Positions 3,513-64,000 of a stretch of DNA of 64,000 nt are shown in pieces. The notes below the pieces were generated by a model that saw only the letters and a list, made by a program, of their open reading frames with translations, was not told where the DNA came from and ran no database searches. This DNA comes from Xanthobacteraceae bacterium (lineage in GTDB: Bacteria; Pseudomonadota; Alphaproteobacteria; Rhizobiales; Xanthobacteraceae). Made by a program: the position numbers and the translations under genes. Each line of letters starts with the position of its first letter. Position 1 is the stretch's first letter. Where the stretch lies: contig DASRET010000080.1 in assembly GCA_035651875.1 (NCBI GenBank), positions 13,790 to 77,789 of the forward strand, in the 5' to 3' direction.

Positions 3513-5414
3513 TTGACGAGGATCAGTTTTGGCTGCGTTGCCGTCGCAACGGTGACGGCGGCGGGCTGCTGTTCGGCGGCGGGCCAGTCCTTCAGCCAAT
3601 TCGTCGGGTTTGGCGACAGCACAATCGACAGCGGCTGGTATCGCAATGCCGCGCCGAATTCGACCAATCCGGTCTACAACGCCGACTTCGCCATTGCGGT
3701 GACGCAGGGCGGCGGAAAAGCCACCACCAATCCCGGCTTGGTCAGCTCCGAGTTTCTCGCAAGTTATTTCAACCTGACCACCGCGCCCGCCAATCAGCCG
3801 GGGGGCACCAATTACGCAACCGGCGACGCGCGCAACGCCCAATCCAATATCGGCGTACCCAACAGCCTGCAGGGGGCAGTCCCGACCGTCACCCAGATCA
3901 ACAACTACCTCGCGGCGCACAACGGCATCGCCAATCCCACCGGACTTTATCTGATCGGTTCCGGCGGCAACGACATCTCGTTTGCGCTGGGTAATCTGCC
4001 AGCCGCTGCCCAGAGTCCATACGTTGTCACTGCCGCGAACGATCTCGTCGGCGGCATCGTCCAGCTGCAAGTGGCGGGCGCGCGCTTCATCGTCGTGCCG
4101 GACCAGCCGCAGTCGTTCGGCGCGGCGAACGTGCAGGCCTTGCGTAGCACTTACGATGACGACCTGTGGGGAGGTCTCGCCGCCGCCCACGTCAATTTCA
4201 TTCCGGCCGACGTCAACGCCGTGTTCAAGGCGGTTGCGGCAAATCCGTCGACGTTCGGATTCATTCCCGGCGGCGGTCCTGCCTGTACCCAGCCGGCCAG
4301 CATCCCCAGCGGCTGGGCTATTTTTTGCGCGCCGACCTCCACCATCTCGACGCTGGTGTCGCCGGACGCCGCGCAGACGCACTTTTTTGCCGACGACGTG
4401 CACTTGACGACCGCGGGACAGAAAATCATTGCCGACTACGAATACAGCCTCATTGTCGCGCCGAGCGAAATCTCGCTGCTTGCCGAACTGCCGGTGAAGA
4501 CGCGCGCCACCATGGTCGAAGCCATGTATGCCGAGATCGCCCTGTCCCAGGAGCAACGCAAGGTCGGCAGCTTCAACGCATGGATCAGCGGCGGCGCGGC
4601 GGCGCTTCGTGTCGATTCGAGCGCTCCGGGCCTGCCCGGCGACTCCGGCACGCCGCTCGGGGTGACCGTCGGTCTCGACTATGCGGTCGCGCCTGGGTGG
4701 CTTGTCGGCGGCGCCTTCTCGGCAGGTTATGCGTCGCAAGCGTTCAGCCTCGGCGGCAACTTCTCGCAGGACGAATACACGCTGAGCGCCTACGCGGCGT
4801 TCCGCGGCCGCTCCACCTGGGCCAATTTCATCGGCAGCGCCGGTGTGCTCGACGACAAGGTCAATCGCGTCGTGCCGATCGGCATCACCATGCAATCCAA
4901 CACCGGGTCCACCAGCGGCTCGAATTTTTCGTTCGCGGCTGAAGGCGGATACGACTTCAGGAGCGGCATCGTCACGCATGGACCGTTGGCCGGCGTGCTG
5001 CTGCAGCACATCGATATCGATGGCTATACGGAGACCGACTCGTTTGCCGCCATCGGCGGATTGACCGCGCTGTCGTTTGCCCGCCAGACCCGCAACTCAG
5101 CCGTCACCGAATTCGGCTACCAAGCCCGCGTCGAGCTCGACGCCTGGACGCCGTTCGCCAAGCTCGCCTGGAATCACGAGCTGGTCTCGCCCAACCGTCT
5201 TGTCACCGCCACGCTGACCACCATCAGCGCGCGAAGCTATTCCATGCCGGCATTAGAACTCGGCACCGATTGGGCCACGCTGTCGGCCGGCACCAGTATG
5301 CGTATCCGGCGCAACATCACCGGATCCGCGATGGTCTTGGGCGAGCTCGGACAAGACAAGGAAACGTCGTACGGCGGGCAAGCCGGCATCAACGTCGCGC
5401 TGGACTGGCAATGA
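3513..5414 (+). CDS. SGNH/GDSL esterase autotransporter (EstA-like)
   Basis: 633 aa with a signal-like N-terminus. Block I is FVGFGDSTIDSGWY, followed by LIGSGGNDI and DDVHLT (D-x-x-H). A C-terminal ~280-aa beta-barrel-like domain ends ...GINVALDWQ. The track start is TTG. Confidence 0.85.
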   Translation: MTRISFGCVAVATVTAAGCCSAAGQSFSQFVGFGDSTIDSGWYRNAAPNSTNPVYNADFAIAVTQGGGKATTNPGLVSSEFLASYFNLTTAPANQPGGTNYATGDARNAQSNIGVPNSLQGAVPTVTQINNYLAAHNGIANPTGLYLIGSGGNDISFALGNLPAAAQSPYVVTAANDLVGGIVQLQVAGARFIVVPDQPQSFGAANVQALRSTYDDDLWGGLAAAHVNFIPADVNAVFKAVAANPSTFGFIPGGGPACTQPASIPSGWAIFCAPTSTISTLVSPDAAQTHFFADDVHLTTAGQKIIADYEYSLIVAPSEISLLAELPVKTRATMVEAMYAEIALSQEQRKVGSFNAWISGGAAALRVDSSAPGLPGDSGTPLGVTVGLDYAVAPGWLVGGAFSAGYASQAFSLGGNFSQDEYTLSAYAAFRGRSTWANFIGSAGVLDDKVNRVVPIGITMQSNTGSTSGSNFSFAAEGGYDFRSGIVTHGPLAGVLLQHIDIDGYTETDSFAAIGGLTALSFARQTRNSAVTEFGYQARVELDAWTPFAKLAWNHELVSPNRLVTATLTTISARSYSMPALELGTDWATLSAGTSMRIRRNITGSAMVLGELGQDKETSYGGQAGINVALDWQ

Positions 5415-5492
5415 GCGGCTGAGCGCTCAGACCCAGCGCCAGCCATTGGCACAACGCCAAGCATCCGACGTCGGCCGGGCAGGTGAGATCAA

Positions 5493-7205
5493 TCACCTCG
5501 CGTTAGCGTCGATCAGAGGCGTGATGCGGCGGATGGCGACACGGCGATTGGCGCGTTCGGACCCGCTCGTCTGGACCTTCAAATCCTGTTTTCCGTAGCC
5601 TTGCGTGACGAGATTCTCGGGCGGCACATGGAATTCTTCGCTGAGCGCCACCGCGACCGACTCGGCGCGGCGGTCGGACAGCGAAAGATTGTCGACATCG
5701 TTGCCGACCGCGTCGGTATGACCCTCGATGAGAAAGACCTCTTGTGGGTTGCGGCTGATGGCGCGGCCGAGCGCTTCGGCGATGACCGAGAGCCGCTCCA
5801 CCTGATCGGGCGTGATCTGCCATGACCCGGTGTCGAACGTGATGTCGAGATCCACGCGCGGCATGCGGGCGCGCAACGGCTCGCTGTAGCGCACCTCGTC
5901 CAGTGTGTAGCGCTGCGCGATGGCCTCGACCGGCGGCGCAACGAACACGTCGTAAATGGCAGCTTCGTTCGCCGCATTGGCTTCGAGAATATAGCGGTCG
6001 CGCGGAATGCGAATGACCGGAGGCGGCAGCTCGACAAAGACTTCGCGCGGCCGGGCGCCGGCAAAACTGTTGTCGACCAGGATGATTTCCCGGCCGTTGG
6101 GGTCGCGGCGAACGCGGCGCAGGAGATGCCCTTCGGCGTCGGTGGTGTTGATGATCTGCACGCCGTCCGGGCGGACCACGACCGCCACCGTCTCGTTGCC
6201 GCGCCGGTCGACGTGAATGTCGCGCGCGCCGACGGCGAAGCGGTCCACTTCGTTGTGGCGGATGATGGTCCGATTGCCTTCCTCGACGATAGTGCGGTCG
6301 GGCTCCCTGATGAAGACGCGGTTGCCTTCGCGCACCTCTTGGCGCTGCTGGTGCAGTTGATTGATGTTGGCCGTGGGCGCTTGGCCTTTCGGTGCGATGA
6401 ACTGACCCTTGTTGATCGGCTGTGCCGGCGGCGGCACGGCTCCCGGATTGCCGTTCGGACTGGGCGAGGCGCGCCGCACCGCCGCAGCGCCCGCCCCCGG
6501 CTGCTGCGTTGCCGGCTGCGCCGTTTGGTTCGGTGCAGCCGCCGGTCCTTGCGCGGGCTGATTGCCGGGCGACGCGTTTTGCGCCGGTGCGTGCTGGCCA
6601 CCGCCGGGCTGCTGCGGGGCCGGCTTGCCCGGCGCCGCTTGGCCGGGCTGGGCAACGCCGCGATGTTCCTCGCGATGTTCCTGTTGTGCTGCTGGTGCTC
6701 CGCCGGGCGCTGCCGCCGGACGCCCGCCATTGGGCGGCACATGTTGTTCCGGCCCGCGATGTTCCTCGCGACGTTCCTGTTGTGCCGCGGGTGCTCCGCC
6801 GGGCGCTCCTGCCGGATGCCCGCCATTGGGCTGCACGTGTTGTTGCCCCGGTTGCGGCGCCGCTTGCCGCGGCGGCTGCGAATTTTGCGGCTGTGGATGC
6901 GCCGGTGCTGCTGCGGCGGGTGGATGCTGCTGCGCTGGCGGCTCGACATGGCGTTGCTGAGGCTGCGGATTTGCCGGCGGATGCGCAGCGGCCGGCGGTG
7001 CCTGGTGGGGCGGGGCACCCTGTGGGGCGGGCTTTGCCGGGGCTTTTTTCTCGCCCGGCTTATTGGGCTCGGGCTGCTGCCCCTGACCCACCCCCGCCTG
7101 CGCGAGACGTTCCAAGTCAGCCGGCGCGCTCTGCGCCTGCCAGCCGGTGAGCCCGAGCGTCGACAATACCGTTCCGGCCAAGAGTGCGGATCGAGCGGCT
7201 CTCAT
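5493..7205 (-). CDS. OmpA-family protein with a long Pro/Gln/Ala-rich linker
   Basis: C-terminal OmpA block ...FLIEGHTDAVGNDVDNLSLSDRRAESVAVAL...RANRRVAI. The signal peptide begins at internal Met MRAARSALLAGTVLSTLGL (ATG 7205), so this is preferred to track start 7244. Confidence 0.8.
   Translation of the reverse strand: MRAARSALLAGTVLSTLGLTGWQAQSAPADLERLAQAGVGQGQQPEPNKPGEKKAPAKPAPQGAPPHQAPPAAAHPPANPQPQQRHVEPPAQQHPPAAAAPAHPQPQNSQPPRQAAPQPGQQHVQPNGGHPAGAPGGAPAAQQERREEHRGPEQHVPPNGGRPAAAPGGAPAAQQEHREEHRGVAQPGQAAPGKPAPQQPGGGQHAPAQNASPGNQPAQGPAAAPNQTAQPATQQPGAGAAAVRRASPSPNGNPGAVPPPAQPINKGQFIAPKGQAPTANINQLHQQRQEVREGNRVFIREPDRTIVEEGNRTIIRHNEVDRFAVGARDIHVDRRGNETVAVVVRPDGVQIINTTDAEGHLLRRVRRDPNGREIILVDNSFAGARPREVFVELPPPVIRIPRDRYILEANAANEAAIYDVFVAPPVEAIAQRYTLDEVRYSEPLRARMPRVDLDITFDTGSWQITPDQVERLSVIAEALGRAISRNPQEVFLIEGHTDAVGNDVDNLSLSDRRAESVAVALSEEFHVPPENLVTQGYGKQDLKVQTSGSERANRRVAIRRITPLIDANAR
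6660..6851. repeat. Tandem direct repeat, 2 x 96 bp, inside the OmpA-family linker
   Basis: Units begin at 6660 and 6756 (gcgatgttcctcgcga[t/c]gttcctgttgtgc...). They encode two ~32-aa copies ...PNGG(H/R)PA(G/A)APGGAPAAQQE(R/H)REEHRG.... Confidence 0.85.
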
Positions 7206-7264
7206 CCTGGTTCCCCACGCGTTGTGTCCCGGCGCATGGGTCACCAGTCCAGTGCGACCGAACT

Positions 7265-7843
7265 ATGGCGGCGCTGCGCGCCATGCTGAACCGAATGCGG
7301 CAGCACGGCGACCAACGCGAAGACGCGGGAAGCGAGGCGCCAGTGGACACGGTGACGTTCTTCTTCGACTTTCGGGGCCGCATCAACCGGGCCAGATATT
7401 GGCTGGCGCTGCTGATCTTCCTGATCGTCGACGTGGTGCTGAGTCTGATCGGCCTCGCCGTCGGCAAAGGGTTGACGTTTCAAGTCGTCAGCTATGGACT
7501 CAACCTCGCGATGTTCCTGTCCACCATCGCGCTCAGCATCAAGCGACTGCATGACCGCGACCGCTCGGCGTGGTGGCTGTTGTCGTTCTATATCGTGCCG
7601 GCTCTGATCGTCGCGGTCGGCGGCTTCCTGCTGTGGAACGCGGCCGGCTCCTTCGGCGACGTCAAGGATGTATCGCTCCTTCTCCTTCGCGTCTGCGTGC
7701 TCGGCGGCGTCGCGTTCTGCTTCTGGGGCTTGGCCGAGATCGGCTTTCGTCGCGGCACCACGGGCTACAATCGCTTCGGCCCCGATCCGCTGGCAAGACG
7801 GTCGCGGACCTGGGTCAGGCCCGCCGCGCAACTTGGCCGCTAA
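7265..7843 (+). CDS. DUF805 family inner-membrane protein
   Basis: ...FDFRGRINRARYWLALLIFLIV... and ...LSIKRLHDRDRSAWWLL... are DUF805 (YhaH/YhaI-like) signatures. Start moved to ATG 7265 to avoid overlapping the divergent OmpA gene. Confidence 0.7.
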   Translation: MAALRAMLNRMRQHGDQREDAGSEAPVDTVTFFFDFRGRINRARYWLALLIFLIVDVVLSLIGLAVGKGLTFQVVSYGLNLAMFLSTIALSIKRLHDRDRSAWWLLSFYIVPALIVAVGGFLLWNAAGSFGDVKDVSLLLLRVCVLGGVAFCFWGLAEIGFRRGTTGYNRFGPDPLARRSRTWVRPAAQLGR

Positions 7844-7849
7844 GCGTCT

Positions 7850-8650
7850 TCAAGAATGTCCGGATAAGTCTCCGATCGTCGGCGTTGCGCCGGACAGCGG
7901 ATTGCTCGGGTCCCACTGATAGCGCAGCGTCTCGAAGCGCATGGAGCGGGCGTCGATCATCAACAGGCGCCCGACCAGATTGTCGCCGAAGCCGACGATC
8001 TCGCGAATGATTTCGAGCGCCATCATCGAGCCGATCACGCCGGCGAGCGCGCCCAGAACGCCGGCCTCGGCGCAAGCCGGCACGGTGCCGGGCGGCGGCG
8101 GTTCGGGAAACAGGCAGCGGTAAGTCGGATTGGGCTTGCCGTCGGCGCCGCGCTCGTGGGCGCGGATCGTTGTCAGCGTGGCGTCGAAGGTGCCGAGTGC
8201 AGCGGTCACCAGCGGCTTCTTGGCGAAGTAGCAGGCATCGGAGACGAGATACCGCGTGGCGAAATTGTCGGAGCCGTCGGCGACGATGTCGTAGCGGCCG
8301 ATCAGGTCGAGGGCGTTGCCGGCGACGAGCCGCGTGCCGTGCGCCTCGACCGCGACATGCGGATTGAGCTTGCGGATCGTCGCTGCGGCGCTCTCGACTT
8401 TCGCCATGCCGACGTCGGGCGTTTCGTGGATCACCTGCCGCTGCAGATTGGAAAGCGTGACCACGTCGTCATCGATGACGCCGAGCGTGCCGACGCCGGC
8501 AGCGGCCAGATAGAGCAGCACCGGCGCGCCGAGGCCGCCGGCACCGATCACCAGCACGCGGGCGCGCTTGAGCGCGGCCTGTCCCGGGCCGCCGACCTCG
8601 AGCAGCACGATGTGCCGCGCATAGCGTTCAAGTTCTTCGGCGCTGAGCAT
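7850..8650 (-). CDS. ThiF/MoeB/HesA family adenylyltransferase (molybdopterin-synthase adenylyltransferase-like)
   Basis: MLSAEELERYARHIVLLEVGGPGQAALKRARVLVIGAGGLGAP... carries a Rossmann GxGxxG in an E1-like core. The upstream 92 codons of the track ORF are Cys/Pro-rich and overlap the divergent gene, so ATG 8650 is preferred. Confidence 0.8.
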   Translation of the reverse strand: MLSAEELERYARHIVLLEVGGPGQAALKRARVLVIGAGGLGAPVLLYLAAAGVGTLGVIDDDVVTLSNLQRQVIHETPDVGMAKVESAAATIRKLNPHVAVEAHGTRLVAGNALDLIGRYDIVADGSDNFATRYLVSDACYFAKKPLVTAALGTFDATLTTIRAHERGADGKPNPTYRCLFPEPPPPGTVPACAEAGVLGALAGVIGSMMALEIIREIVGFGDNLVGRLLMIDARSMRFETLRYQWDPSNPLSGATPTIGDLSGHS

Positions 8651-8750
8651 GGCCGCAACCGAACGCCCGCCGGAGCAGCACGTCAAGCTGCCGGCCAAAT
8701 TGCGCCGCGGCGTCGTTGCGCTATCCTCTATGGGTCGGCGGGATGCGGGG

Positions 8751-10124
8751 ATGAACACGCGGGTGACGGGCATCATCGTCTGCGTGGCGCTGGCCGGCGT
8801 GCCGGCGCTGGCGCAGCAGGCCCAAAACGGCACGCAGGGGCACAAGCCCGGCGGGCGGGCCGTGCCGCACGCCGCTACCAAGGTTACGCCGAAAAAACCG
8901 GGCGCAAAGCCGGCTGCTGCACTCACCGACGTCTATGCAAAGCTGCCGGCCGCCGAGCGGTTTGCCATCCAGAGCAACCTCGCCTGGATCGGCGTTTACG
9001 AAGGCCTGCCCGGCGGCGATGTCGACGACCGGACGATCGAGGCGATCAAGCTGTTCCAGAAAGGTCACGCCGCCAAGGATACCGGCATCTTGGACGAGCA
9101 GCAGCGCGCGCAGCTTGCCGCCGCCGCATCCGGGCCGCAGCAGGCGGTCGGCTGGCGCGTGATCGACGATGCGGCGACCGGCGAGCGTTTTGGCTTGCCG
9201 GAAAAACTCGTGTCGCGAAGCGGCGCCTCGCCGGGTGGCAGCCGCTGGAGCTCGGGCCGTGGCCAGATTCAGATCGAAACCTTTCAATTCGGCGAGGCGT
9301 CGCTGCCGGCTTTGTTCGACACGGAAAGAAAGACGCCGCGCAGCCGGCGCATCGAAGCGAGCGTGCTCAAGGCCGACTCGTTCTTCATGGCGGGCACGCA
9401 GGGCCTGAAAAACGTCGTGGTGCGTGCCGACGCCCGCGGCAGCGAAATCCGCGGCATCACGGTTCTGTACGACCAGGCCAACAAGGGCGTGATGACGCCC
9501 GCGGCGATCGCCATCGCCAATTCATTCCAGGGCTTTCCCGATCCGCACGCCGGCCCGCCGCCCGGCCAAAGGCCCGCGGTCGAGTACGGCACCGCGATTG
9601 TCGCCGACGGCAGCGGCATTCTCCTCGCGCCGCGGCCGCTGACGGCCGATTGCGAGACGATCACGGTGCCGGGCTTCGGCCATGCGGTGCGTGTTGCCGA
9701 GGATAGCGCGAACGATCTGGCGCTGCTCCGCGTTTTTGCCTGGCAAACGCTGACGCCGGCGCCGCTTGGGGCTGATGGCAATGGTAATGACACTCTCGCG
9801 CTGATCGGCATCGCCGATCCGCTGGCGCAGCAAGGCGGCCGCGCCGTGACGCACGCTGCCGCACACCGCAACGGACAAATCGTCGAGCCAGGCCCGGCTC
9901 CTGGTTTTTCCGGCGCCACTGCCGTCGACGCCCAGGGCCGCTTCGTCGGCATCGTCGAACTAAAATCGCAACCCGTCGCCGGCCCGGCGGTAGCTGGCGA
10001 TCAGGCGGTTCTCATTCCGGCTGCCGCAGTGCGGGCATTTCTCACGGCGCAAGGCGTTATGCCGGCGGCTGGCTCTGGCGCCACAGATCAATCGGTCGTG
10101 CGGCTGGTCTGCGTGAGAAAGTGA
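8751..10124 (+). CDS. Secreted peptidoglycan-binding-domain / trypsin-like serine protease family protein
   Basis: Signal peptide MNTRVTGIIVCVALAGVPALA. PG-binding-like segment ...DDRTIEAIKLFQKGHAAKDTGILDEQQRAQL.... C-terminal ...APGFSGATAVDAQGRFVGIV... resembles the GxSG block. Confidence 0.6.
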   Translation: MNTRVTGIIVCVALAGVPALAQQAQNGTQGHKPGGRAVPHAATKVTPKKPGAKPAAALTDVYAKLPAAERFAIQSNLAWIGVYEGLPGGDVDDRTIEAIKLFQKGHAAKDTGILDEQQRAQLAAAASGPQQAVGWRVIDDAATGERFGLPEKLVSRSGASPGGSRWSSGRGQIQIETFQFGEASLPALFDTERKTPRSRRIEASVLKADSFFMAGTQGLKNVVVRADARGSEIRGITVLYDQANKGVMTPAAIAIANSFQGFPDPHAGPPPGQRPAVEYGTAIVADGSGILLAPRPLTADCETITVPGFGHAVRVAEDSANDLALLRVFAWQTLTPAPLGADGNGNDTLALIGIADPLAQQGGRAVTHAAAHRNGQIVEPGPAPGFSGATAVDAQGRFVGIVELKSQPVAGPAVAGDQAVLIPAAAVRAFLTAQGVMPAAGSGATDQSVVRLVCVRK

Positions 10125-10128
10125 GGCG

Positions 10129-10902
10129 TTATTTGTTCTCGAACTTCGCCGCTCGCTTCTCGACGAACGCTTTCATGCCCTCTTTCTGATCGCGCGTGGC
10201 GAACAGCGAATGAAAAATGCGCCGCTCGAAGCGAATGCCTTCGGCGAGCGAGGTCTCGAACGCGCGGTTGACCGCCTCCTTGGCGGCGAGCACCGACGGC
10301 AGCGACATCGCGGCGATGGTCTCGGCGACTTTCAGTGCCTCGTCGAGCAGAGTGGCGGCCGGCACCACGCGGGCGACGAGGCCGCAGCGCTCGGCTTCGG
10401 CGGCGTCCATCGTGCGGCCGGTGAGGATGAGATCCATGGCCTTGGCCTTGCCGACCGCATGGGTGAGGCGCTGCGTGCCGCCGATGCCCGGAATGACGCC
10501 GAGCTTGATTTCCGGCTGGCCGAATTTGGCATTGTCGGCGGCGATGATGACGTCGCATTGCATGGCGAGCTCGCAGCCGCCGCCGAGCGCAAAACCGGCG
10601 ACCGCGGCGACGATCGGCTTGCGCGCCTGCGCGACGCGGTGCCACGCCGCGGTGAAGTCGGCGAAGTAGACTTCGGTAAAACTCTTGTCCGCCATTTCCT
10701 TGATGTCGGCGCCGGCCGCGAACGCCTTGTCGGAGCCGGCGATCAGCATGCAGCCGATCGCATCGTCGGCCTCGAACGCGTCGACTGCAGCCGCAAGCTC
10801 GCGCATCAGCGCGCCGTTGAGCGCATTGAGCGCGGCCGGGCGGTTGAGTCGGATCAGGCCGACCCGGCCGCGCGTCTCGACGATGATGTGCTCGGTGCTC
10901 AT
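10129..10902 (-). CDS. Enoyl-CoA hydratase (crotonase family)
   Basis: [29 protein letters not shown]...[15 protein letters not shown]...[15 protein letters not shown].... ATG 10902 is preferred to track start 10944. Confidence 0.9.
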
Positions 10903-11015
10903 GTTGCGGTGCTCATGGCCGATCCCTCGGCGCTGGTCATTCATGCACGGATCGGCCTAGCCGATATTTTTGCTTTGGGCCACACTGGCCGGGCTCGTGC
11001 GCAAGGGAGAACGCC

Positions 11016-12197
11016 GTGCCTTACGGAAATAGCGCCGCCCGGTTCGGCCTCAAAACCGCTCTTGTCATTGCAACGATATTCGGAGCTGCAGCCATGGCGC
11101 CATCCGCGCAAGCGGCCGACGACCCGCCCTACACGCTCGCCCGCGAGGGCTTCTTCTATGTCGGCGGCACGCTGGAGACCGCGAACGGCCACAGCCACGT
11201 CGTCAACCAGATGTACGTCGAATTCCGCATCCCGGCGGCGCAGACCCATCGCTATCCGATCGTCATGGTGCATGGCGGCACGCGCTCCGGCACGACCTAT
11301 CTGGGCACGCCCGACGGCCGCGAGGGCTGGGCGCAATATTTCGTGCGCCGCGGCTACGCCGTCTACGTGGTCGACCAGCCGGGCCGCGGCCGCTCCGGCT
11401 ACGCCACCGCGCAGTACGGCCCGAGCAAAGTCGCCGACATGGAGGGCGGCCAGCGCCGCTATCTGTCGCAGGAAAAATACCAGCTGTGGCCGCAGGCGCA
11501 CCTGCACACGCAATGGCCGGGCAGCGGCGCGCCCGACGATCCAGTCAGCGTGCAGATGGTGTCGGGCTACGTGCCGGAGATCGCCGATTTCACCACGCAG
11601 CAGGTTCTCAATCGCGACGCGCTGGTGGCGCTGTTCGACAAGATCGGCCCGGCCGTCCTGATGGTGCATTCGCAAGCCGGCGCATTCGCCTGGCCGGTCG
11701 CCGACGCGCGGCCGCAGCTCGTCAAAGCCATCGTCGGCGTCGAGCCGAACGGCCCGCCGTTCTACGAAGTCAGCTTCGTCGGCGCGCCGGATTACTTCAA
11801 GCAGGGCAAGCTGGCGCTGCCGTACGGCTTGAGCGCGGTGCCGCTTTCGTACGAGCCCCCCGTCAAAGACGCGTCCGAGCTGGCGATCTTTCAGGAAGAC
11901 AAAGCTGACGGCCCCGACCTGGTGCGCTGCTGGCTGCAGAAGTCGCCGGTGCGGCAATTACCCAACCTGCAGAAGATGCCGATCATGGTGCTGACCTCGG
12001 AAGCGTCCTATCACGCGCCCTACGACCATTGCACCGTGAAGTATCTCGCCCAGGCCGGCGTCAAGGCCACCCACATCCACCTCGCCGAGCTCGGCATCCA
12101 CGGCAATAGTCACGTCATGATGAACGAGAAGAACAACAAGGAGATCGCGGCGGTGATAGAGAAGTGGCTGGGCGAGGCGGTGAAGGAAAAAGATTAG
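11016..12197 (+). CDS. Secreted alpha/beta-hydrolase fold protein
   Basis: Signal-like N-terminus, ...PIVMVHGGTRSGTTY..., and a nucleophile elbow ...VLMVHSQAGAFAW. Confidence 0.7.
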   Translation: MPYGNSAARFGLKTALVIATIFGAAAMAPSAQAADDPPYTLAREGFFYVGGTLETANGHSHVVNQMYVEFRIPAAQTHRYPIVMVHGGTRSGTTYLGTPDGREGWAQYFVRRGYAVYVVDQPGRGRSGYATAQYGPSKVADMEGGQRRYLSQEKYQLWPQAHLHTQWPGSGAPDDPVSVQMVSGYVPEIADFTTQQVLNRDALVALFDKIGPAVLMVHSQAGAFAWPVADARPQLVKAIVGVEPNGPPFYEVSFVGAPDYFKQGKLALPYGLSAVPLSYEPPVKDASELAIFQEDKADGPDLVRCWLQKSPVRQLPNLQKMPIMVLTSEASYHAPYDHCTVKYLAQAGVKATHIHLAELGIHGNSHVMMNEKNNKEIAAVIEKWLGEAVKEKD

Positions 12198-57618: not shown

Positions 57619-58137
57619 ATGACCAAATATTCCGCGCCGGCCGCGGCGTTCGCGGCGGCTGTCCTGATCGCCGCCGTATTGGCGGCTCGCGCCCAACCGG
57701 CGCCGCCCGGGCCGCAAGCCGCTCCGGCGCCCGCCGGACCGACCGCCGCGCCCTACGCGATGACCATGGGCGACCTGATGAACACGCTGGTGCAGCCGCG
57801 CCACGCCAAGCTCGGGCTTGCCGGCCAGGCGCACAACTGGCCGCTTGCCGGCTACGCGCTGGTCGAAATCCGCCAGGCCTTCGCTGGCATCGCCAAAGCC
57901 ATCCCGAAATTCCGCGGCTATCCGGTCGCCGAACTCGCCGATGCGGCGCTGAGCCAATCGGAGAGCGCCTTGCAGGGCGCCATCAAGCTGCAGGACCCGC
58001 AAAAATTTGCCGCCGCCTACGACCAGCTCACCCAAGGCTGCAACGCCTGCCACGCCACGCTCTTCCACTCGTTCGTGGTCATCAAGGCGCCCGACGCCTC
58101 GGCGTTTCCGAATCAGAAGTTCAATACCGGGCCTTGA
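57619..58137 (+). CDS. Periplasmic class II (cytochrome c'/c556-like) c-type cytochrome candidate
   Basis: Signal MTKYSAPAAAFAAAVLIAAVLAARA, a helical ~120-aa body, and a single C-terminal CxxCH (...LTQGCNACHATLF...). Confidence 0.55.
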   Translation: MTKYSAPAAAFAAAVLIAAVLAARAQPAPPGPQAAPAPAGPTAAPYAMTMGDLMNTLVQPRHAKLGLAGQAHNWPLAGYALVEIRQAFAGIAKAIPKFRGYPVAELADAALSQSESALQGAIKLQDPQKFAAAYDQLTQGCNACHATLFHSFVVIKAPDASAFPNQKFNTGP

Positions 58138-58260
58138 ACCCGCGCCCGGCGCGACCGACACAAAGCGGCGCCGCGGGCAGGCCGATTGCAAATTCCGTTT
58201 ATCAGGTCATGCTCAGGACGGGCGCGCCACGATGATGGGCGTGGCGCGTGCGGGGCATCG

Positions 58261-58863
58261 ATGGCGGACAACAAACCCGCGGACAAAGACGCAGCCGAGC
58301 CGGCGCCGCATTATCACGGCCATCGCGAGCGGCTGCGCGACCGCTTCCGCGGCGCCGGCGCCGATGCGCTCTCGGACTACGAGCTGCTCGAGCTCCTGCT
58401 GTTCCGTGCCTTGCCGCGGCGCGACGTCAAGCCGCTCGCCAAAGCGCTGCTCGAGACGTTCGGCTCGTTTGCCGAAGTCATCACCGCGCCGCCGTCCCGG
58501 CTTGCCGACGTCAGGGGCATGGGCGATGCCGCGATCACCGAGTTGAAGATTGTGCAGGCTGCGGCCAGCCGGCTCTTGCGCGGCGAAGTCAAGAAGCGGC
58601 CGGTGCTGTCGTCATGGTCGGCGGTGCTCGACTATTGCCGCACCGCGCAGGCCTTCGCCGACCGCGAGCAGTTCCGCATCCTGTTCCTTGACAAGCGCAA
58701 CCAGCTGATCGCCGACGAGGTGCAGCAGACCGGCACCGTCGACCACACCCCGGTCTATCCCCGCGAAGTGGTCAAGCGCGCGCTGGAATTATCCGCCACC
58801 GCGATCGTGCTCGTGCACAACCATCCTACTCAGTCATTTTCAGTCACGCTCAGTCACGCGTAA
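58261..58863 (+). pseudogene. radC: radC (JAMM-family) truncated inside the H-x-H-P motif by island insertion
   Basis: Normal RadC sequence runs up to ...[14 protein letters not shown], then [11 protein letters not shown]-stop. The expected SG...PS..D half of the motif and the C-terminal ~40-50 aa are missing. Confidence 0.75.
58830..58856 (+). repeat. Three TCAGTCA direct repeats with 10-bp phasing at the island junction
   Basis: TCAGTCAtttTCAGTCAcgcTCAGTCA at 58830-36, 58840-46 and 58850-56, starting 4 nt after the last radC-like codon. Confidence 0.8.
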
Positions 58864-58986
58864 TCACTGCAAATCATCCTGATTTTATTGCACATCCGCA
58901 CGCTCGGGTGTACGCCTCGTTCCTGAGCAGCGGCGCAAAAACCGCCCCCAATTAGCGTCCCCTGTTCGCGACGGATGGTGCGTGGG

Positions 58987-60228
58987 ATGACGAGCCTCAC
59001 CGACAGCGTGATTAAACACGCCATTAAGCGCGTCGAGCGATCGCGCCGGCAAACCGTGCTTGCTGATGGCGATGGACGCGGCACGGGCCGCTTGGTCCTC
59101 ATCGTTAAGGCGATGCCTAAGCGCGTCACCGCCGAATGGATGGCGCAGCAGTGGCGCGACAGTCGGCGGATAAAGTCCAAGATTGGAGACTACCCTACCC
59201 TTTCGCTTGCCGACGCACGCGAAATTTTCAAACGTGACTTCGCTCAGGTCATACAGCGAGGCGCGAGCATCAAGACCGCAAGTGACGCCCGGCCAGGTAC
59301 AGTCGGCGACCTGTTCGACGGCTACATTGCCCATTTGAAGGATACGCAGAAATCATCGTGGAGAGAGGCCGAGAAAGGCCTCAACAAAATTGCCAAGACA
59401 CTCGGGCGCAATCGGCTTGCGCGCGATATCACACCAGACGATGTGCTCGACGTTATTCGGCCGATATGGGAGCGCGGTAAGCGCGCCATGGCGGACCATG
59501 TGCGCAGCTACATCCGCTCAGCGTATTCATGGGCGATCAAATCGGAACACGACTACCGCAAGACATCGCCGCGCCGCTTCAAGATGGTCGCCAATCCGGC
59601 CGCCGGCATTCCAACCGAACCTAAGGTGCCAGGCACCCGCTGGCTCGACGAAGCAGAGTTTGTGCAGCTCTACCGCTGGCTCGAATGCCCTGACGCTCCC
59701 GTGCATCCGCCCTACACGCGCGCGGTTCGCATTCTGATGCTGACGGGGCAGCGCGTGGAGGAGATCGCACGGCTACACGTTGATCAATGGGACGCCAAAG
59801 AACGGATTATCGACTGGTCTCGGACCAAGAACGGGCAACCGCACGCAATCCCGGTCCCGGTGCTTGCCGCCGAGCTCATTGAGGGAATAATCCCAAACCA
59901 GTACGGCTGGTTTTTCCCTTCAGCCACGGACCCCTCACGGCCAGTGAGCCACAAGACGCTGTACGCGTTCATGTGGCGCCAGCGGCAGCGCGATGTGATC
60001 CCGTTCGTTACCAACCGCGACCTCCGCCGCACGTGGAAGACCCTCGCCGGGAAGGCTGGTGTGCCCAAGGAAATCCGGGATCGTATTCAAAACCACGCCC
60101 TCCAGGACGTGAGCTCGAGGAGCTACGACCGCTGGACCTATATGCCCGAAAAGCGCGCCGCCATGGAGCGATGGAACACCTTCGTCCTATCCCTGCTCCA
60201 CAAGCCGCGTCTGACGATTGCCGCTTAG
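58987..60228 (+). CDS. Tyrosine-type site-specific integrase (P4-like, DUF4102-type N-terminus)
   Basis: N-terminus ...LTDSVIKHAIK...LADGDGRGTGRLVLIVKA...IGDYPTLSLADAREIF.... Catalytic blocks ...LMLTGQRVEEIARL..., ...HAIPV..., ...RDLRRTWKT..., ...IQNHAL...SYDRWTY.... Confidence 0.9.
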   Translation: MTSLTDSVIKHAIKRVERSRRQTVLADGDGRGTGRLVLIVKAMPKRVTAEWMAQQWRDSRRIKSKIGDYPTLSLADAREIFKRDFAQVIQRGASIKTASDARPGTVGDLFDGYIAHLKDTQKSSWREAEKGLNKIAKTLGRNRLARDITPDDVLDVIRPIWERGKRAMADHVRSYIRSAYSWAIKSEHDYRKTSPRRFKMVANPAAGIPTEPKVPGTRWLDEAEFVQLYRWLECPDAPVHPPYTRAVRILMLTGQRVEEIARLHVDQWDAKERIIDWSRTKNGQPHAIPVPVLAAELIEGIIPNQYGWFFPSATDPSRPVSHKTLYAFMWRQRQRDVIPFVTNRDLRRTWKTLAGKAGVPKEIRDRIQNHALQDVSSRSYDRWTYMPEKRAAMERWNTFVLSLLHKPRLTIAA

Positions 60229-61269
60229 GCTGACGCAGCCGCGGCTCCCGTCGATTTCTCTACCAACGGCAACAGGGGTGTAGTGCTCATCGAAAAGCCC
60301 GAGGACATTTGGATTGTAAAATTTTTGTTTTGCAGTCCTCGGATTTTTCGCGTCAAGACGGCGAGTATGACAGTAGCGCGTGTCACGCTCAGCTGCCTTT
60401 CTTATCCTGTGGAACTTTTCACTCTCTTTGAAATCCGAATAGCGCCGGCGCAGCGCACGTCGTAAATCTGCGTATGTCCACGGAAAGGCCTTACGCGCAT
60501 CCTCTTCTGTAATCGTTATCGGAACCGCCTGCGGATCGCCGGGCGCTACGCGCACGGTAATTGCGCCATCAGTCGCCTTGCGAGAAAATCGTAATTCGAT
60601 CTCGACCCCCACGTTGAACGGGCGCATGGGGTCAAAAGGGTTTGCCTGCGTGGCGTCGGTCAGCAGCTTCCGCAATCTTGCAGTGGGTCCTTTCACATCA
60701 TCCGCAAAAACGGTTTGGAGAATGCCAGCCGGGGACTCAAAGGCGAACGGCATCAAGGCAAAATCGTACTCACTCAGATTGCGGCCAAACCATTCGCGCG
60801 CCGCAAAGGAGAAGTTGCGGAGTGCCGCTGATCCTATCTCTTGAACTCGTTTTTGCAGACCGCGCCCGGCGTTGTGAAAATGAATTGCGTTATCACGAAT
60901 TTCCATCAACAGAGCAAGATTCTCCATGCCGCGCTGATCGATGGGGTTTTTTGGATACTGACGGACAACCTCGGCCGCGGCGAGTATACCGATGGTCATC
61001 GGATTTCCCGCTCTATTTCGCTTGGGCGTCAGCTTCTTCGACGGCTCGCCTGCCTTTGTCGTCTTCCGCTCCCAGACCTCAATACTCGCAATTCGGTTGT
61101 GATTCTCTTTGAGTATTCTCGCCTTCAGCAGCAGCTCCCAGGCATTCAACATAAGAACCGCGAAACTTTCTTCACGGTACCGGAAGGCGGGCTTGTTGTA
61201 GATTTCGATGGCGCCGACTGCCGCATCGATCGCCTTGTCCAAAAGAGAAATGTACCGAGGGGGGCGCAT
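60187..61269 (-). CDS. DUF3644-like protein
   Basis: N-terminus ...LLDKAIDAAVGAIEIYNKPAFRYREESFAVLMLNAWELLLKARIL... matches my recollection of the DUF3644 signature. 360 aa. Its 3' end overlaps the integrase 3' end by 42 nt. Confidence 0.65.
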   Translation of the reverse strand: MRPPRYISLLDKAIDAAVGAIEIYNKPAFRYREESFAVLMLNAWELLLKARILKENHNRIASIEVWERKTTKAGEPSKKLTPKRNRAGNPMTIGILAAAEVVRQYPKNPIDQRGMENLALLMEIRDNAIHFHNAGRGLQKRVQEIGSAALRNFSFAAREWFGRNLSEYDFALMPFAFESPAGILQTVFADDVKGPTARLRKLLTDATQANPFDPMRPFNVGVEIELRFSRKATDGAITVRVAPGDPQAVPITITEEDARKAFPWTYADLRRALRRRYSDFKESEKFHRIRKAAERDTRYCHTRRLDAKNPRTAKQKFYNPNVLGLFDEHYTPVAVGREIDGSRGCVSLSGNRQTRLVEQG

Positions 61270-61687
61270 TTTTACGTCGAAGCTGTCGATCTATATCCGC
61301 ATCTTACATGATGAATGCTCGTTATACTAGAACAGCGATTTATCATGGTGTGCGGCCCTCAAGGTGTGCGAACAAAACACGTAGCATTCACCCAGCGATG
61401 GGCCGCATTAAGTCCCATAAGATCCCACTTCGACTGGTGCGATACCGGGCGCGAGGTGGAGGCGCGCCGTTTCGGAACCCCTCGCCGGGGGCAGTCGGTC
61501 CCGCGTCCCGCCTTTAGCGGCGCTATGCTGACGCTCCTGCGGCTGCCCTGTTAACCGGTCGCGGGGCTAGCGAATGGTCTCGCTTTCTGCCCGATGGCAC
61601 TCGCCCATACGCCCATCGTTCCGCTCAGCTATTCAGCCGAGCGCCAGTGATCAGGGATTCTCTTGTTGTTGAGATGCCGTACACGGG

Positions 61688-61849
61688 CTACGAGCGGGTG
61701 ATGACCGTTCTTTTAGCCCATCCGATCGCCTCATGCTGAGTACTGGATGTGTGCAACACATGGTCCGCGTGATCTTCGACCACATAATCGTCGATATGAG
61801 TTCCTTCAGGACGGCCTTTCGGCCGCGCCTCGCTATACACATTCGCCAT
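61688..61849 (-). CDS. Small DUF2188-like protein (53 aa)
   Basis: SD GGAGGAG lies 6 nt upstream of ATG 61849. MANVYSEARPKGRPEGTHIDDYVVEDHADHVLHTSSTQHEAIGWAKRTV loosely fits the DUF2188 pattern (...T..eAi..Ak). Confidence 0.45.
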   Translation of the reverse strand: MANVYSEARPKGRPEGTHIDDYVVEDHADHVLHTSSTQHEAIGWAKRTVITRS

Positions 61850-61921
61850 AGCGTTCTCCTCCGTTCTCTCTACATGGCTCAGCCAGGGCACGCCTGTCGG
61901 GTTGAACTCTACTAACTTCAC

Positions 61922-63046
61922 TCATGCCGCCGCCTGAACGGCTTTCGGTTCGATGCCGATTTTGGACGAAAGCACTTCGGCCATAGCTCGCCTTGTTTGG
62001 TGAGAGTTACGAACCGTCAGTTTCGTCTCGCCTTTCTTGTTCACAGCAGGCACAATGATGCCAGCCTTCTGGAACACAGGATTGGTCCACGCGAAGAAAT
62101 TGTACGTTTTGCCCTTTTCATCCTTTTCCTTAGCCGCCAGCTTCCTGAGGACCTCAAGGTTTAGTTTCGCGTCATAGAGCCGACGAGCAAGTCGGATATA
62201 CCCCTGGATTGCTATCGCCCATCCGGCGAGAGATTCCCTGCGCGATCGTTGCCGCTCCGGCAGAGGAAGCCGCTTAAGTTCAGGAAGCACCTCAACCAGC
62301 TTTTCCCAGAATGACAAGAACCAGGTGACCACCTCTTCTACATCGCCGCTGGGAGTGTCTGCCCATGCCTCTTCGAAACCGGCAGCAAAGGTATTGAAGG
62401 CGGCCAGCCGTGGATTCTTGATCGAAAGATTGTTAGTAACAGTTTCCACATTAGCCTCGCCTAGATGGGGCGAGCGTCGGACGATTTCGCGCGCAATTTT
62501 TTGACCTTCGTTCTTCTGCGCGAGCCATTTCGAACGCGTAGCATCGGCTTTATCATGTTCCATATTCATCGCGTAAAAGATTGAGTTTTCGAATTCCTCC
62601 GGGACACGCCAGATTCTCAACGAAAAACGCCGTCCCGGATCGAAGCTCGAACCGGCCGCAACGGATTCGACTGCACGTCTAATTGCGTGATGACGGTGAA
62701 CCGAGTCGGGAAGATAAGCTGTCCCACTCCTGACCACGAGGGTGCCGTGCGCCGGGTTCTCCTGATCTGGGACGAATTCGATGTCCGAGTGTTGCGGACG
62801 AAAATTCCATGTGAGCTGACCGAAGATGGCTGTGTCGTCCTGCAGCTCCCGTGTCCAGCGCTCCACCTTGTCGGTTTTCAGCACGTACTTGCCGGTAACA
62901 GAGTTCTTGCCGCGCTGACGTTCGGGGTCGACCTCTAGCAGGCCGTATTTGAAAGCCTTTGCGATATCCCGCGCCGTGATCGTGGTGTCCCAGCAGTCCT
63001 GTCCGCCATCGCGGGTAATCACAACGTTTGTAATCCGTGTTTCCAT
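61922..63046 (-). CDS. DGQHR/DndB-like (ParB-sulfiredoxin fold) family candidate with divergent core motif
   Basis: SD GGAGGAA lies 7 nt upstream of ATG 63046. Ordered blocks are ...EVDPERQRGK..., ...GTAYLPDSVHRHHAIRRAV..., ...FYAMNMEHDKADATRSKW..., followed by a ~200-aa helical C-terminal half. Confidence 0.55.
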   Translation of the reverse strand: METRITNVVITRDGGQDCWDTTITARDIAKAFKYGLLEVDPERQRGKNSVTGKYVLKTDKVERWTRELQDDTAIFGQLTWNFRPQHSDIEFVPDQENPAHGTLVVRSGTAYLPDSVHRHHAIRRAVESVAAGSSFDPGRRFSLRIWRVPEEFENSIFYAMNMEHDKADATRSKWLAQKNEGQKIAREIVRRSPHLGEANVETVTNNLSIKNPRLAAFNTFAAGFEEAWADTPSGDVEEVVTWFLSFWEKLVEVLPELKRLPLPERQRSRRESLAGWAIAIQGYIRLARRLYDAKLNLEVLRKLAAKEKDEKGKTYNFFAWTNPVFQKAGIIVPAVNKKGETKLTVRNSHQTRRAMAEVLSSKIGIEPKAVQAAA

Positions 63047-63176
63047 GTCGAATTCCTCCAAAATAAGAAGGGCTTAGGCCCGAGGCGCTGGTACGCGTTA
63101 TTTTTACTGCATTAGGGTCCAGTACGTATACTTGAACCTCCATATATAGCATGAGCTCATCTGTGTAAATAGCAAA

Positions 63177-63198
63177 GTACGCAAACTTTTTTGCGTAC
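63177..63198. promoter_or_regulatory. 9-bp perfect inverted repeat in the divergent promoter region
   Basis: GTACGCAAA-cttt-TTTGCGTAC in the AT-rich 269-nt spacer between the DGQHR-like gene and the ATPase gene. Confidence 0.4.
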
Positions 63199-63315
63199 CG
63201 CTGTTGAGTAATCATGCAGCGGGTGATATTTGATGGTTAATTCGCGCGGTGCGGGTGGAGCTCCGGGGAGTCCTCGTGCCATTAAGTCGACGGTCCCCGG
63301 GCCTGGGGAGTTACA

Positions 63316-64000
63316 ATGCCAAAATGGGAGTTTGAACGGCTTCCACCTGCCCTTGTTGAGCAAGGCCTTACGCAACGAGACCAATTTAATAATGACGACG
63401 TTGAGCTTGCCGAGGCGCTTGTCCGGGAGGTCATCCAAAATTCCAACGATGCGGCAGCGGGAGGAGGAGGCGTTAAGGTTCGCTTTGGCATCCGGAGTTT
63501 AGGAACCGGCGAGGCTCTACGCCTACGCCAATATTTCACCGATCTACTGCCGCACCTCGCAGCGTGCAGCATTGACCCAGCTCCCCTTACGCGTCCGGAC
63601 GTGCGCGTTCTGGTAATTGAAGATTTCGGCACCAAGGGCCTGACCGGCAGTCCCGCTGCACGCGATAACGACAACTTCGATCGTTTTTGGCGCCAACACG
63701 GAATTTCTGGAAAGGGCGGCCGTGCCGGCGGCAGATGGGGTCTCGGAAAGCTTGTGTTTTCCTCAGCTTCGGAAATCAGGGCTTTCTTCGGGTTGACCAT
63801 CAGAATCGGGCAGACGCAGCCGCTTTTGATGGGCCAAGCCGTTCTTTCAAATCATCAGCTCGCAGGCGTTCGCTATCCAGCACACGGATTCTGGTTCGCA
63901 GATCGAGCGGCAGACAATCTTCAGCTGCCCATCACAGACGCCACCGTTATCTCCGCCCTTGCTAACCTTGCCGGTGTCAGCAGGACGAACCAACCGGGGC
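63316..64000 (+). CDS. GHKL (Bergerat-fold, Hsp90/MutL/MORC-like) ATPase, N-terminal 228 codons; continues beyond window end
   Basis: Not in the ORF track because it is open-ended. SD GGGGAG lies 5 nt before ATG 63316, and I translated to nt 64000 with no stop. N box ...LVREVIQNSNDA..., DxGxG-type ...VLVIEDFGTKGLTG..., G2 ...GKGGRAGGRWGLGKLVFS.... Confidence 0.7.
   Translation, partial: MPKWEFERLPPALVEQGLTQRDQFNNDDVELAEALVREVIQNSNDAAAGGGGVKVRFGIRSLGTGEALRLRQYFTDLLPHLAACSIDPAPLTRPDVRVLVIEDFGTKGLTGSPAARDNDNFDRFWRQHGISGKGGRAGGRWGLGKLVFSSASEIRAFFGLTIRIGQTQPLLMGQAVLSNHQLAGVRYPAHGFWFADRAADNLQLPITDATVISALANLAGVSRTNQPG

Follow-up and report, generated by a model that had tools for sequence, protein, structure and literature searches.

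The right-hand end of a 64,000-nucleotide (nt) stretch of DNA from a Xanthobacteraceae bacterium (assembly GCA_035651875.1, contig DASRET010000080.1; the whole stretch is called the window here) carries a dndB-like gene and, facing it on the other strand, a gene for a GHKL ATPase that is still open at nt 64000. According to the original prediction, these two genes and a small DUF2188-like open reading frame (ORF) would form one new conflict module. In this study, both genes were followed beyond the window and across public genomes and metagenomes. The picture that we favour, if only slightly, is that a separable restriction-type ATPase module and a DndB-like regulator module meet head-to-head at 63047–63315. 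We hold the architecture with much more confidence than this overall picture, and the molecular details with much less. The ATPase operon is probably part of a restriction-type anti-phage system rather than of a new DndB-plus-ATPase module, and the DndB-like protein is probably a portable DNA-binding regulator or sensor.

All sequence features reported earlier for this region were confirmed, namely the 374-codon gene, the 72-nt gap, the 53-codon ORF, the spacer, the repeat, and the open ATPase gene. They are arranged as follows.

61688–61849, − strand: 53-codon ORF, 72 nt downstream of the DndB-like stop codon, with a GGAGGA Shine-Dalgarno sequence
61922–63046, − strand: DndB-family (ParB superfamily) gene of the PDSxHR subfamily, 374 amino acids (aa), by Pfam, motifs and fold
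63047–63315, no strand: divergent control region of 269 nt, the half nearer the DndB-like gene conserved and promoter/operator-like
63316–64000, + strand, open at the window end: ATPase gene, first 228 codons of a 602-aa protein with GHKL plus S5-transducer architecture

These are real genes and not chance ORFs: the DndB-like protein matches Pfam DndB at 64.8 bits, the ATPase has at least 1482 homologues, and a set of 1.84 billion representative proteins contains 396 relatives of the small ORF. They are also poorly catalogued, as had been supposed, with no curated model for most of the proteins.

Genes beyond the window end

The window was extended with locus L003, part of a 59-kb ENA metagenome contig found via an exact protein match. 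L003 is identical to window 58001–64000 at 6000 of 6000 positions and runs 9 kb further; window-equivalent coordinates are 73047 minus the L003 coordinate. The contig extension proposed with the original prediction recovered the whole ATPase gene (L003 7923–9731, − strand) and the genes downstream of it.

63316–65124, + strand: ATPase, 602 aa, first gene of the operon
65124–65894, + strand: 256-aa gene, overlapping the ATPase gene by 1 nt
65891–66691, + strand: 266-aa gene, overlapping the 256-aa gene by 4 nt
66924–67349, + strand: Vsr (7e-28), after a 232-nt gap
67346–68827, + strand: C5-cytosine methylase (Dcm), 493 aa, overlapping Vsr by 4 nt (DNA_methylase, 4e-58)
68829–69956, − strand: 375-aa gene, convergent, putative nuclease

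The absence of dnd, ssp and dpd genes noted earlier holds for the 21-kb L003 locus, among whose genes no dndACDE, ssp or dpd (dpdA tRNA-guanine transglycosylase) gene was found. The accompanying claim that methyltransferase and nuclease genes are missing does not hold, with Vsr, a C5 methylase and a probable nuclease lying past the window end. The C-terminus of the 375-aa protein gives weak nuclease-type matches (TmtA C-terminus, 2e-10; PDC-S36, 7e-9) and by eye resembles DUF3883-type nucleases. A comparison with EcoRII-C in hhalign showed no relationship, and a single-sequence PDB search returned nothing usable. Relative to a type II restriction-modification (R-M) system with Vsr, the locus thus has a clear methylase and Vsr, and a 375-aa gene with weak nuclease-type matches only.

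Linkage of the ATPase operon to Dcm and Vsr

Eleven ATPase loci, including the window, were informative; L117 and L119 were uninformative, their contigs ending there. The informative loci are listed with their ATPase identity, and Dcm and Vsr genes adjoin the operon in each.

Window/L003: 100%, Dcm and Vsr adjoining
L005: 80%, Dcm and Vsr adjoining
P0229 contig: 69%, Dcm and Vsr adjoining
L097–99: 69%, Dcm and Vsr adjoining
L118: 65%, Dcm and Vsr adjoining
Bradyrhizobium betae L100: 61%, Dcm and Vsr adjoining
Dongia soli L120: 52%, Dcm and Vsr adjoining
L112–114: 51%, Dcm and Vsr adjoining
L102–111: 50%, Dcm and Vsr adjoining
Marinobacterium L002: 37%, Dcm and Vsr adjoining
L115/116: 36%, Dcm and Vsr adjoining

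The C5 methylase and Vsr genes occur in five arrangements around the operon, and homologues of the 256- and 266-aa proteins (~256 and ~262 aa) follow the ATPase in every informative locus where the sequence continues. The conserved unit is therefore the ATPase, the ~256-aa and ~262-aa proteins translationally coupled to it, Dcm and Vsr (11/11 loci), and not the DndB-like gene, small ORF and ATPase that had been proposed as a unit. The cassettes themselves are of several kinds. The window type carries the 375-aa gene. Other loci carry a helix-turn-helix gene with Dcm, Vsr and EcoRII-C, divergently transcribed, or a 518–530-aa Dcm with Vsr and no recognisable or separate nuclease gene (L118, L115, L002). 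In Dongia, the cassette consists of a ribbon-helix-helix gene, Dcm, McrB-like and McrC-like genes, and Vsr, and an overlapping PLDc_2 (PLD-family nuclease) gene is appended to the ATPase operon. In most loci that are not of the window type, the operon begins with a strongly conserved gene of ~76 aa, which is absent from the window clade.

In the Dongia locus (L120 998–11172), the AAA match of the McrB-like protein is weak, the McrC-like protein combines DUF2357 and PDDEXK_7, and the R-M genes and the ATPase operon are transcribed in divergent directions. It is odd to find a methylase next to an McrBC-like pair.

Alternatively, the three-gene operon might be a stand-alone defence that does not use the methyl mark and merely clusters with Dcm-Vsr cassettes. 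In PDC-M33, to whose A component the ATPase is related, neither of the partners M33B and M33C is a methylase; in canonical loci, the operon has its own ~76-aa lead gene and is transcribed divergently from the R-M cassette; and defence genes cluster. However, all 11 operons lie beside Dcm and Vsr although the Dcm proteins of different cassette types share only 23–30% identity, and L118 is a minimal insertion among ribosomal protein genes with nothing else defence-like there. Moreover, only 232 nt separate the operon from the co-directional Vsr-Dcm genes in the window clade, and in L001, the sole locus that lacks a methylase, the ATPase is truncated and its partner genes are missing. On this evidence, we consider a stand-alone defence unlikely and retain the reading of a methylase-linked, restriction-type system.

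Fold of the ATPase and comparison with related systems

The blocks EVIQNSNDA, IEDFGTKG and GGRWGLGKLVF of the ATPase correspond to GHKL motifs I (ExxxNxxD), II (DxGxG) and III (GxxGxG), and E38, N42, D45, D103, G108 and G139–K145 are invariant in 44 homologues. The homologues are ~600–612 aa long, and all are without a name. The full 602-aa protein has no Pfam or NCBIfam match, not even to HATPase_c or HATPase_c_3 at E 0.1, and a PDB sequence-profile search for the family gave nothing usable. We therefore relied on an AlphaFold2 (AF2) model of P0227, which is 80% identical to the ATPase (predicted local distance difference test score, pLDDT, 84). In Foldseek searches of the PDB, this model matched Topo VI-B (3e-10), the SMCHD1 ATPase module (4e-6), PMS2 (2e-5), and GRP94 (4e-5). 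It is laid out as a GHKL domain and transducer, a disordered linker, and a beta-rich C-terminal domain whose last 100 residues are beta strands. Collectively, motifs and fold matches bear out the earlier GHKL assignment, and the model identifies the ATPase as a predicted GHKL-plus-transducer protein of MORC/paraMORC-like type.

Among its structural neighbours is PMS2, a MutL homologue, which raises the question of a repair accessory: a MutL-like ATPase whose operon would stimulate Vsr in very-short-patch T:G repair. Vsr is present in 11/11 loci, and E. coli MutL works with Vsr, as cited in PMC2292703. Nevertheless, Topo VI-B and SMCHD1 match the fold better than the MutL homologues do, and the loci form islands that also hold integrases, further defence genes and restriction nucleases. 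In Dongia, a PLD nuclease is added to the operon. To our knowledge, most bacterial Dcm-Vsr pairs work without such genes. A repair role has little probability in our estimate.

The pairing had not been mapped onto any named system, and here the result differs: the N-domain of the ATPase matches PADLOC PDC-M33A, its only defence-database match (1e-15 for the window fragment; 3e-23 for the full protein, model positions 31–288 of 627), and GHKL ATPases in Dcm/Vsr operons were already predicted in 2008. Iyer, Abhiman & Aravind then predicted that MORC/paraMORC GHKL+S5 ATPases share operons with Dcm, Vsr and EcoRII-like nucleases, and suggested ATP-driven looping of DNA as their activity (PMC2292703). 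The present family is similar in its N-terminal GHKL domain with intact ATP motifs and transducer-like middle domain, in its neighbourhoods with cytosine methylases, Vsr-family and EcoRII-like nucleases, and in its patchy, island-borne distribution. It differs in having two family-specific partners and, in most loci, the ~76-aa lead gene, in lacking an SF2 helicase, and in a C-terminus that is beta-rich and not a nuclease or TIR. Furthermore, judged by sequence, the ATPase falls outside the modelled MORC/paraMORC families because it has no match at E 0.1 to HATPase_c or to HATPase_c_3, the Pfam model that we take to cover MORCs and paraMORCs. The ATPase operon is thus an uncharacterised, widespread variant of the paraMORC-type methylase-linked systems with two orphan partners.

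PDC-M33 (A, a GHKL ATPase; B; and C, DUF6339) shares with this operon the plan of a small gene, a GHKL ATPase and two proteins. However, only the first half of M33A aligns, and the 256- and 266-aa partners match neither M33B nor M33C (hhalign probability ≤0.1%). PDC-M33 is itself a computational candidate only, and no mention of it was found in the literature searched. The two operons are sister modules, since a PDC-M33 module preceded by a homologue of the same 76-aa gene stands in tandem with the ATPase operon in Marinobacterium. In this locus (M. aestuariivivens L002 5847–13311), the 76-aa gene homologue and M33A, B and C lie upstream of the ATPase operon, followed by Vsr and Dcm. Several genes of both modules are frameshift-split there, which may reflect decay or assembly error.

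Shedu type I-D, or paraMORC3 (VcSduA), is a GHKL-nuclease fusion of proven anti-phage activity, and its ATPase-site and nuclease-site variants lose that activity (PMC12137116). It is a single polypeptide with a C-terminal DUF4263 PD-(D/E)xK nuclease, whereas the ATPase described here has no nuclease domain; the full protein gave no Shedu match in PADLOC and no DUF4263 match.

The DndB-like protein and its upstream region

The 374-aa protein contains the blocks QRG, LPDSVHR and FNT in its translation and matches Pfam DndB (PF14072) well above the gathering cut-off (29.1 bits) and almost end to end (9.7e-18, profile positions 4–337 of 338). Nearly all of its listed homologues match PF14072 as well. 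There are 168 homologues at E ≤ 0.001, of which the best 120 listed are 47–100% identical. In the family, Q44, R45, G46, P113, D114, H117, R118, F217, N218 and T219 are invariant, those of the PDSxHR block across 26 members; a block RNSHQTRRAM is also invariant or nearly so, and the DGQHR motif occurs in 0 of 26. On sequence grounds, the protein is not an orthologue of DndB proper because it scores 27.2 bits against the NCBIfam DndB equivalog TIGR03233, for which the cut-off is 328.

An AF2 model of the 374-aa protein (pLDDT 84) gave 26 matches at E ≤ 0.001 among the predicted viral structures of BFVD, the best at E 1e-11. These were 'DNA-sulfur modification-associated' (DndB-like), GmrSD_N/DUF262, and ParB-like nuclease proteins, and the predicted ParB-type fold therefore stands. 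A PDB fold search gave nothing significant (SspE at E 1.7), and a PDB profile search for the family gave nothing usable. Pfam and the BFVD matches thus agree with the original assignment to a DndB-type family with a divergent DSVHR core. Compared with DndB of the dnd system, the protein is alike in full-length Pfam membership, in its ParB/DUF262-like fold, and in standing at the head of a DNA-modification or restriction locus with repeated boxes upstream. It is unlike it in carrying PDSxHR instead of DGQHR, in lying far below the equivalog cut-off, and in its partner modification, which here is 5-methylcytosine or none.

The spacer between the two genes falls in the 500-nt window of lowest G+C (0.51) in the last 12 kb profiled. 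In an alignment of seven loci of the close clade, 200 nt 5' of the DndB-like start are conserved, with the following elements (no strand assigned).

63176–63198: ACGTAC box 1 with the perfect 9-bp inverted repeat GTACGCAAA-N4-TTTGCGTAC (repeat at 63177–63198)
63164–63169: TGTAAA (TTTACA on the DndB-like strand, −35-like)
63151–63160: conserved palindrome ATGAGCTCAT
63121–63129: ACGTAC box 2, AGTACGTAT (ATACGTACT on the DndB-like strand), invariant in 7/7 loci
63090–63098: ACGTAC box 3, GGTACGCGT (CGCGTACC on the DndB-like strand)

The conserved blocks follow each other in the order AAAAAGTTTACGTACT .. CTTTACA .. TGAGCTCA .. ATCATACGTACT .. GCGCGTACC, and their spacing to the DndB-like start is constant. 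The aligned loci include L017 and L021, which have ample flanks and no ATPase; in L018 and L020, the flanks are too short for a judgement. Since the upstream block is kept also where the ATPase is absent, the control region belongs to the DndB-like gene. The ACGTAC boxes are putative operators by their positional conservation. The inverted repeat as such was rejected as the key operator: the arm nearer the DndB-like gene (63176–63186) is kept in 7/7 loci, and the far arm is recognisable in only three of them (window, L018, L021).

Neighbourhoods of the DndB-like gene

Genome and metagenome scans for the DndB-like gene returned 92 loci. The ATPase stands beside it only in the window clade (L003/L004, L005, L097–99 and the P0229 contig); two more short contigs, P0110/P0230 and P0113/P0231, may have the same pairing, to judge from their matching lengths. 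In L005, the DndB-like gene (10001–11123, 84% identity) is split by a frameshift, and the ATPase operon, Vsr and Dcm are intact.

These loci bear directly on the proposal that the DndB-like gene, the DUF2188-like ORF and the ATPase are one new conflict module. The DndB-like gene is divergent beside the ATPase in the window, L005, the P0229 contig and L097–99, which are the closest ATPase relatives and lie in islands at different insertion sites. The pairing, however, is limited to this closest ATPase clade (67–80% identity). ATPase operons at 36–65% identity never occur with the DndB-like gene, and DndB-like genes that are 69–80% identical and have ample flanks occur without the ATPase (L017, L021, L023, L025). 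Additionally, the small ORF lies beside the DndB-like gene nowhere else, and the upstream block travels with the DndB-like gene alone. A single module is thus very improbable and already largely refuted by the co-occurrence data, which agree better with two separable modules.

With decreasing similarity, the company of the DndB-like gene changes. At ~47–54% identity, Dcm and/or Vsr lie beside it in five loci (L030, L031, L034, L032, L038). L030, L031 and L034 also carry a gene related to an MTaX1-domain protein (Pfam-confirmed in L030 and L034), such MTaX1-Dcm-Vsr cassettes lying at about 52% identity, and the flanks of L032 and L038 are too short to show more than Dcm and/or Vsr. At ~36–45% identity, more than 45 loci have a conserved 95-aa partner 3' of the DndB-like gene within ~40–120 nt, which resembles GhoS in Pfam (1e-5) and YmfI in NCBIfam (2e-12, below the cut-off). 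After this partner come tightly spaced operons of changing content: among 59 downstream ORFs, 16 have Cap15 and 14 have SMODS, and other cargo includes bacterial HORMA, CAP12-type TIR, PIN-TPR-GreABC, and ResIII/DEAD helicases. The partner begins MAQFTVRVELH and contains LPWAEY (for example, L011 11178–11465); YmfI belongs to the e14 prophage.

Portable regulators such as CapW/BrxR and CapH-CapP also stand upstream of immune operons. As with CapK-CapS (PMC13373217), the DndB-like gene forms a one- or two-gene cassette directly upstream of many unrelated defence operons. It differs from these regulators in its ParB/DndB fold, which is not a WYL, HTH-protease or kinase-STAS architecture, and in the cassette of the clade linked to CBASS (cyclic oligonucleotide-based anti-phage signalling systems), which is co-directional with its cargo; that the DndB-like protein regulates is what we infer from its position. 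A full-text literature search, judged mostly by title and abstract, found no paper linking DndB-like genes to a position upstream of CBASS.

Instead of regulating, the DndB-like protein might be an effector (a ParB-type nuclease or NTPase) or one half of a toxin-antitoxin-like pair with the GhoS-like protein, and hence an island passenger. The Pfam GhoS family that the partner matches is named as an endoribonuclease, GhoS is an antitoxin, and some homologues of the DndB-like gene sit by housekeeping genes (L023, L025). In GmrSD and SspE, ParB/DUF262 folds serve as nucleases or NTPases, and such an activity has been proposed for DndB itself (PMC10853773). Nonetheless, regulator cassettes are typically recognised by a conserved multi-box upstream region and by a place immediately upstream of varied operons or divergent from them, both seen here, and the window copy has no GhoS-like partner. 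We judge the effector reading to be rather unlikely and keep to that of a portable regulator or sensor.

Some neighbours were examined individually. In L017, whose DndB-like gene is 80% identical to that of the window, a divergent operon-like run (3635–9417, − strand) comprises ORFs of 871, 548 and 455 aa, of which the largest matches nothing in Pfam, PADLOC or NCBIfam and the two others nothing in PADLOC; the run may be another uncharacterised cargo of the same rider. A PADLOC scan of the DndB-like neighbours in L017, L006 and L007 gave no known defence match of note. The 607-aa gene of L030 was considered as the lead of a divergent ATPase operon and rejected: it has a Walker A motif (GTGKT) and no match to the ATPase profile, and we take it for a P-loop ATPase similar to conjugative coupling proteins.

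Proposed mechanism and points against it

On the restriction side, Dcm would mark the host DNA, and Vsr would repair the T:G mismatches that arise from deamination of 5-methylcytosine, limiting the mutational cost. An ATPase dimer with the two partners might act as an ATP-driven DNA clamp or looping machine, which would be either the restriction component itself or the helper of a separate nuclease. Candidates for the latter are, in this locus, the 375-aa DUF3883-like protein, in other loci EcoRII-C or McrC-like proteins, and in Dongia the in-operon PLD. By its gene context, the trio of ATPase and partners is a putative restriction component. On the regulatory side, DndB is described as an ATP-dependent negative regulator of dnd in PMC10853773, which cites He 2015 and Xia 2019. 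As DndB is described as repressing its own operon under modulation by ATP, the DndB-like protein is most simply read as a portable regulator whose gene here also faces the ATPase operon. By analogy with DndB, the DndB-like protein would bind the ACGTAC boxes and control both its own gene and the divergent ATPase operon.

Several results weigh against this reading. The 256- and 266-aa proteins have no match in Pfam, NCBIfam, PADLOC or PDB sequences, and no nuclease or DNA-binding domain was recognised in them. Frameshifted or truncated copies occur in L002, L097 (266-aa gene), L005 (DndB-like gene) and L001. Adjacency to Dcm and Vsr could mirror clustering in defence islands rather than joint function; mere clustering is countered by the 11/11 linkage across unrelated Dcm lineages. 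For the DndB-like protein, the strict heptamer ACGTACY is not enriched window-wide (5 found against 3.7 expected). In the ~40% clade, the gene is co-directional with the downstream operons and not divergent from them, so that it could there be a component or an independent two-gene system. Finally, ParB-superfamily proteins also include nucleases or NTPases (PMC10853773).

Only tentatively, therefore, do we put forward the full combination, which is possible and on the whole doubtful: that the ATPase and the two orphan proteins are an uncharacterised ATP-driven restriction machine that reads or depends on the Dcm mark, with an interchangeable nuclease or none, and that the PDSxHR branch of DndB with its ACGTAC boxes is a new portable ParB-fold regulator or sensor upstream of CBASS, TIR, HORMA, PIN-TPR, R-M and GHKL operons. 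The ATPase family, with its at least 1482 public members and neither a name nor a Pfam or NCBIfam model, offers through its strict linkage to Dcm and Vsr a testable case of the 2008 prediction of MORC-like restriction, which has so far been verified only for the nuclease-fused Shedu form. EcoRII-type enzymes have to engage several sites simultaneously, and such a system could explain how they are assisted on phage DNA that is poor in sites. If true, an operator-bearing DndB-like gene upstream of CBASS and other operons would place a ParB-fold protein among the few portable regulators of immune operons and broaden the view of DndB protein roles outside phosphorothioation.

The 53-codon ORF

The family of the 53-codon ORF reaches up to 83% identity over residues 1–47 and has the common sequence MANVYVEARPKGRP..DDYVVEDHADH..TQxEAIDWAKK. 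Sub-threshold matches to DUF2188 (PF09954) were found in 4 of 10 relatives (E 0.007–0.07; 13.7–16.9 bits against a gathering cut-off of 22; positions 12–45), and the window ORF itself had none at E ≤ 1. P0358, at 375 aa the longest of eight relatives read, continues past residue 47 as ...NGHSLLVARVRHLNDKKKPDHWR. Because the window copy and other relatives diverge after about residue 47, where P0358 continues, the window ORF is, by this comparison, probably truncated at its 3' end. The ORF was not found beside the DndB-like gene in any other locus, including L005, L097 and the P0229 contig. Of the proposed DUF2188-like operon partner, the weak resemblance to DUF2188 thus survives and the partnership does not; the ORF is unrelated, DUF2188-like by resemblance only, and linked to neither module.

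Island setting

The G+C profile drops from ~66% to 55% at ~59000, where a tyrosine integrase gene begins, and this drop with the adjoining integrase supports the integrase island described earlier. Two further genes of the window belong to this setting.

58975–60228, + strand: tyrosine integrase
60187–61269, − strand: DUF3644 gene, 360 aa, PADLOC single-gene candidate PDC-S19 (E 1e-121, almost end to end)

The DUF3644 gene is convergent with the integrase gene and overlaps its 3' end by 42 nt. The island appears to be inserted into the 3' part of radC (58186–58863, + strand), since radC breaks off within the usual HNHPSG JAB motif directly before the integrase. Within the 9 kb of L003 beyond the window, no right island end, attR copy or displaced radC 3' end was found. 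When plasmids, phages and viral contigs were searched for both genes, the yield was a single weak plasmid match, to the ATPase family. Because these searches were near-empty, both modules are chromosomal-island cargo and not phage or plasmid genes. A tRNA scan of the window found none, an Rfam scan of 58000–64000 gave no match, and promoter and terminator scans remained at chance level.

Several repeats were observed around the operons. A 32-nt imperfect direct repeat (28/32, AAACGGCGCGCCTCCACCTCGCGCCCGGTATC) lies at window 61441–61472 and at L003 2980–3011, with the 8.6 kb in between reaching from the 375-aa gene to the 53-codon ORF. This repeat was found at this locus only and may be the mark of a nested insertion or a recombination joint. 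Runs of a ~10-nt unit (CGTTCGCGxC-like) form two blocks 241 nt apart at L003 2586–2967 (window-equivalent ~70080–70461), inside a 221-aa gene for a coiled-coil-like protein; in L097, too, this protein is encoded next after the 375-aa gene. At L003 712–774 (window-equivalent ~72273–72335), a 22-nt unit (CTTGTGTCAAAGCCCCCAC...) occurs three times in tandem; the array lies close to the return of G+C to ~68% and possibly near the right end of the island.

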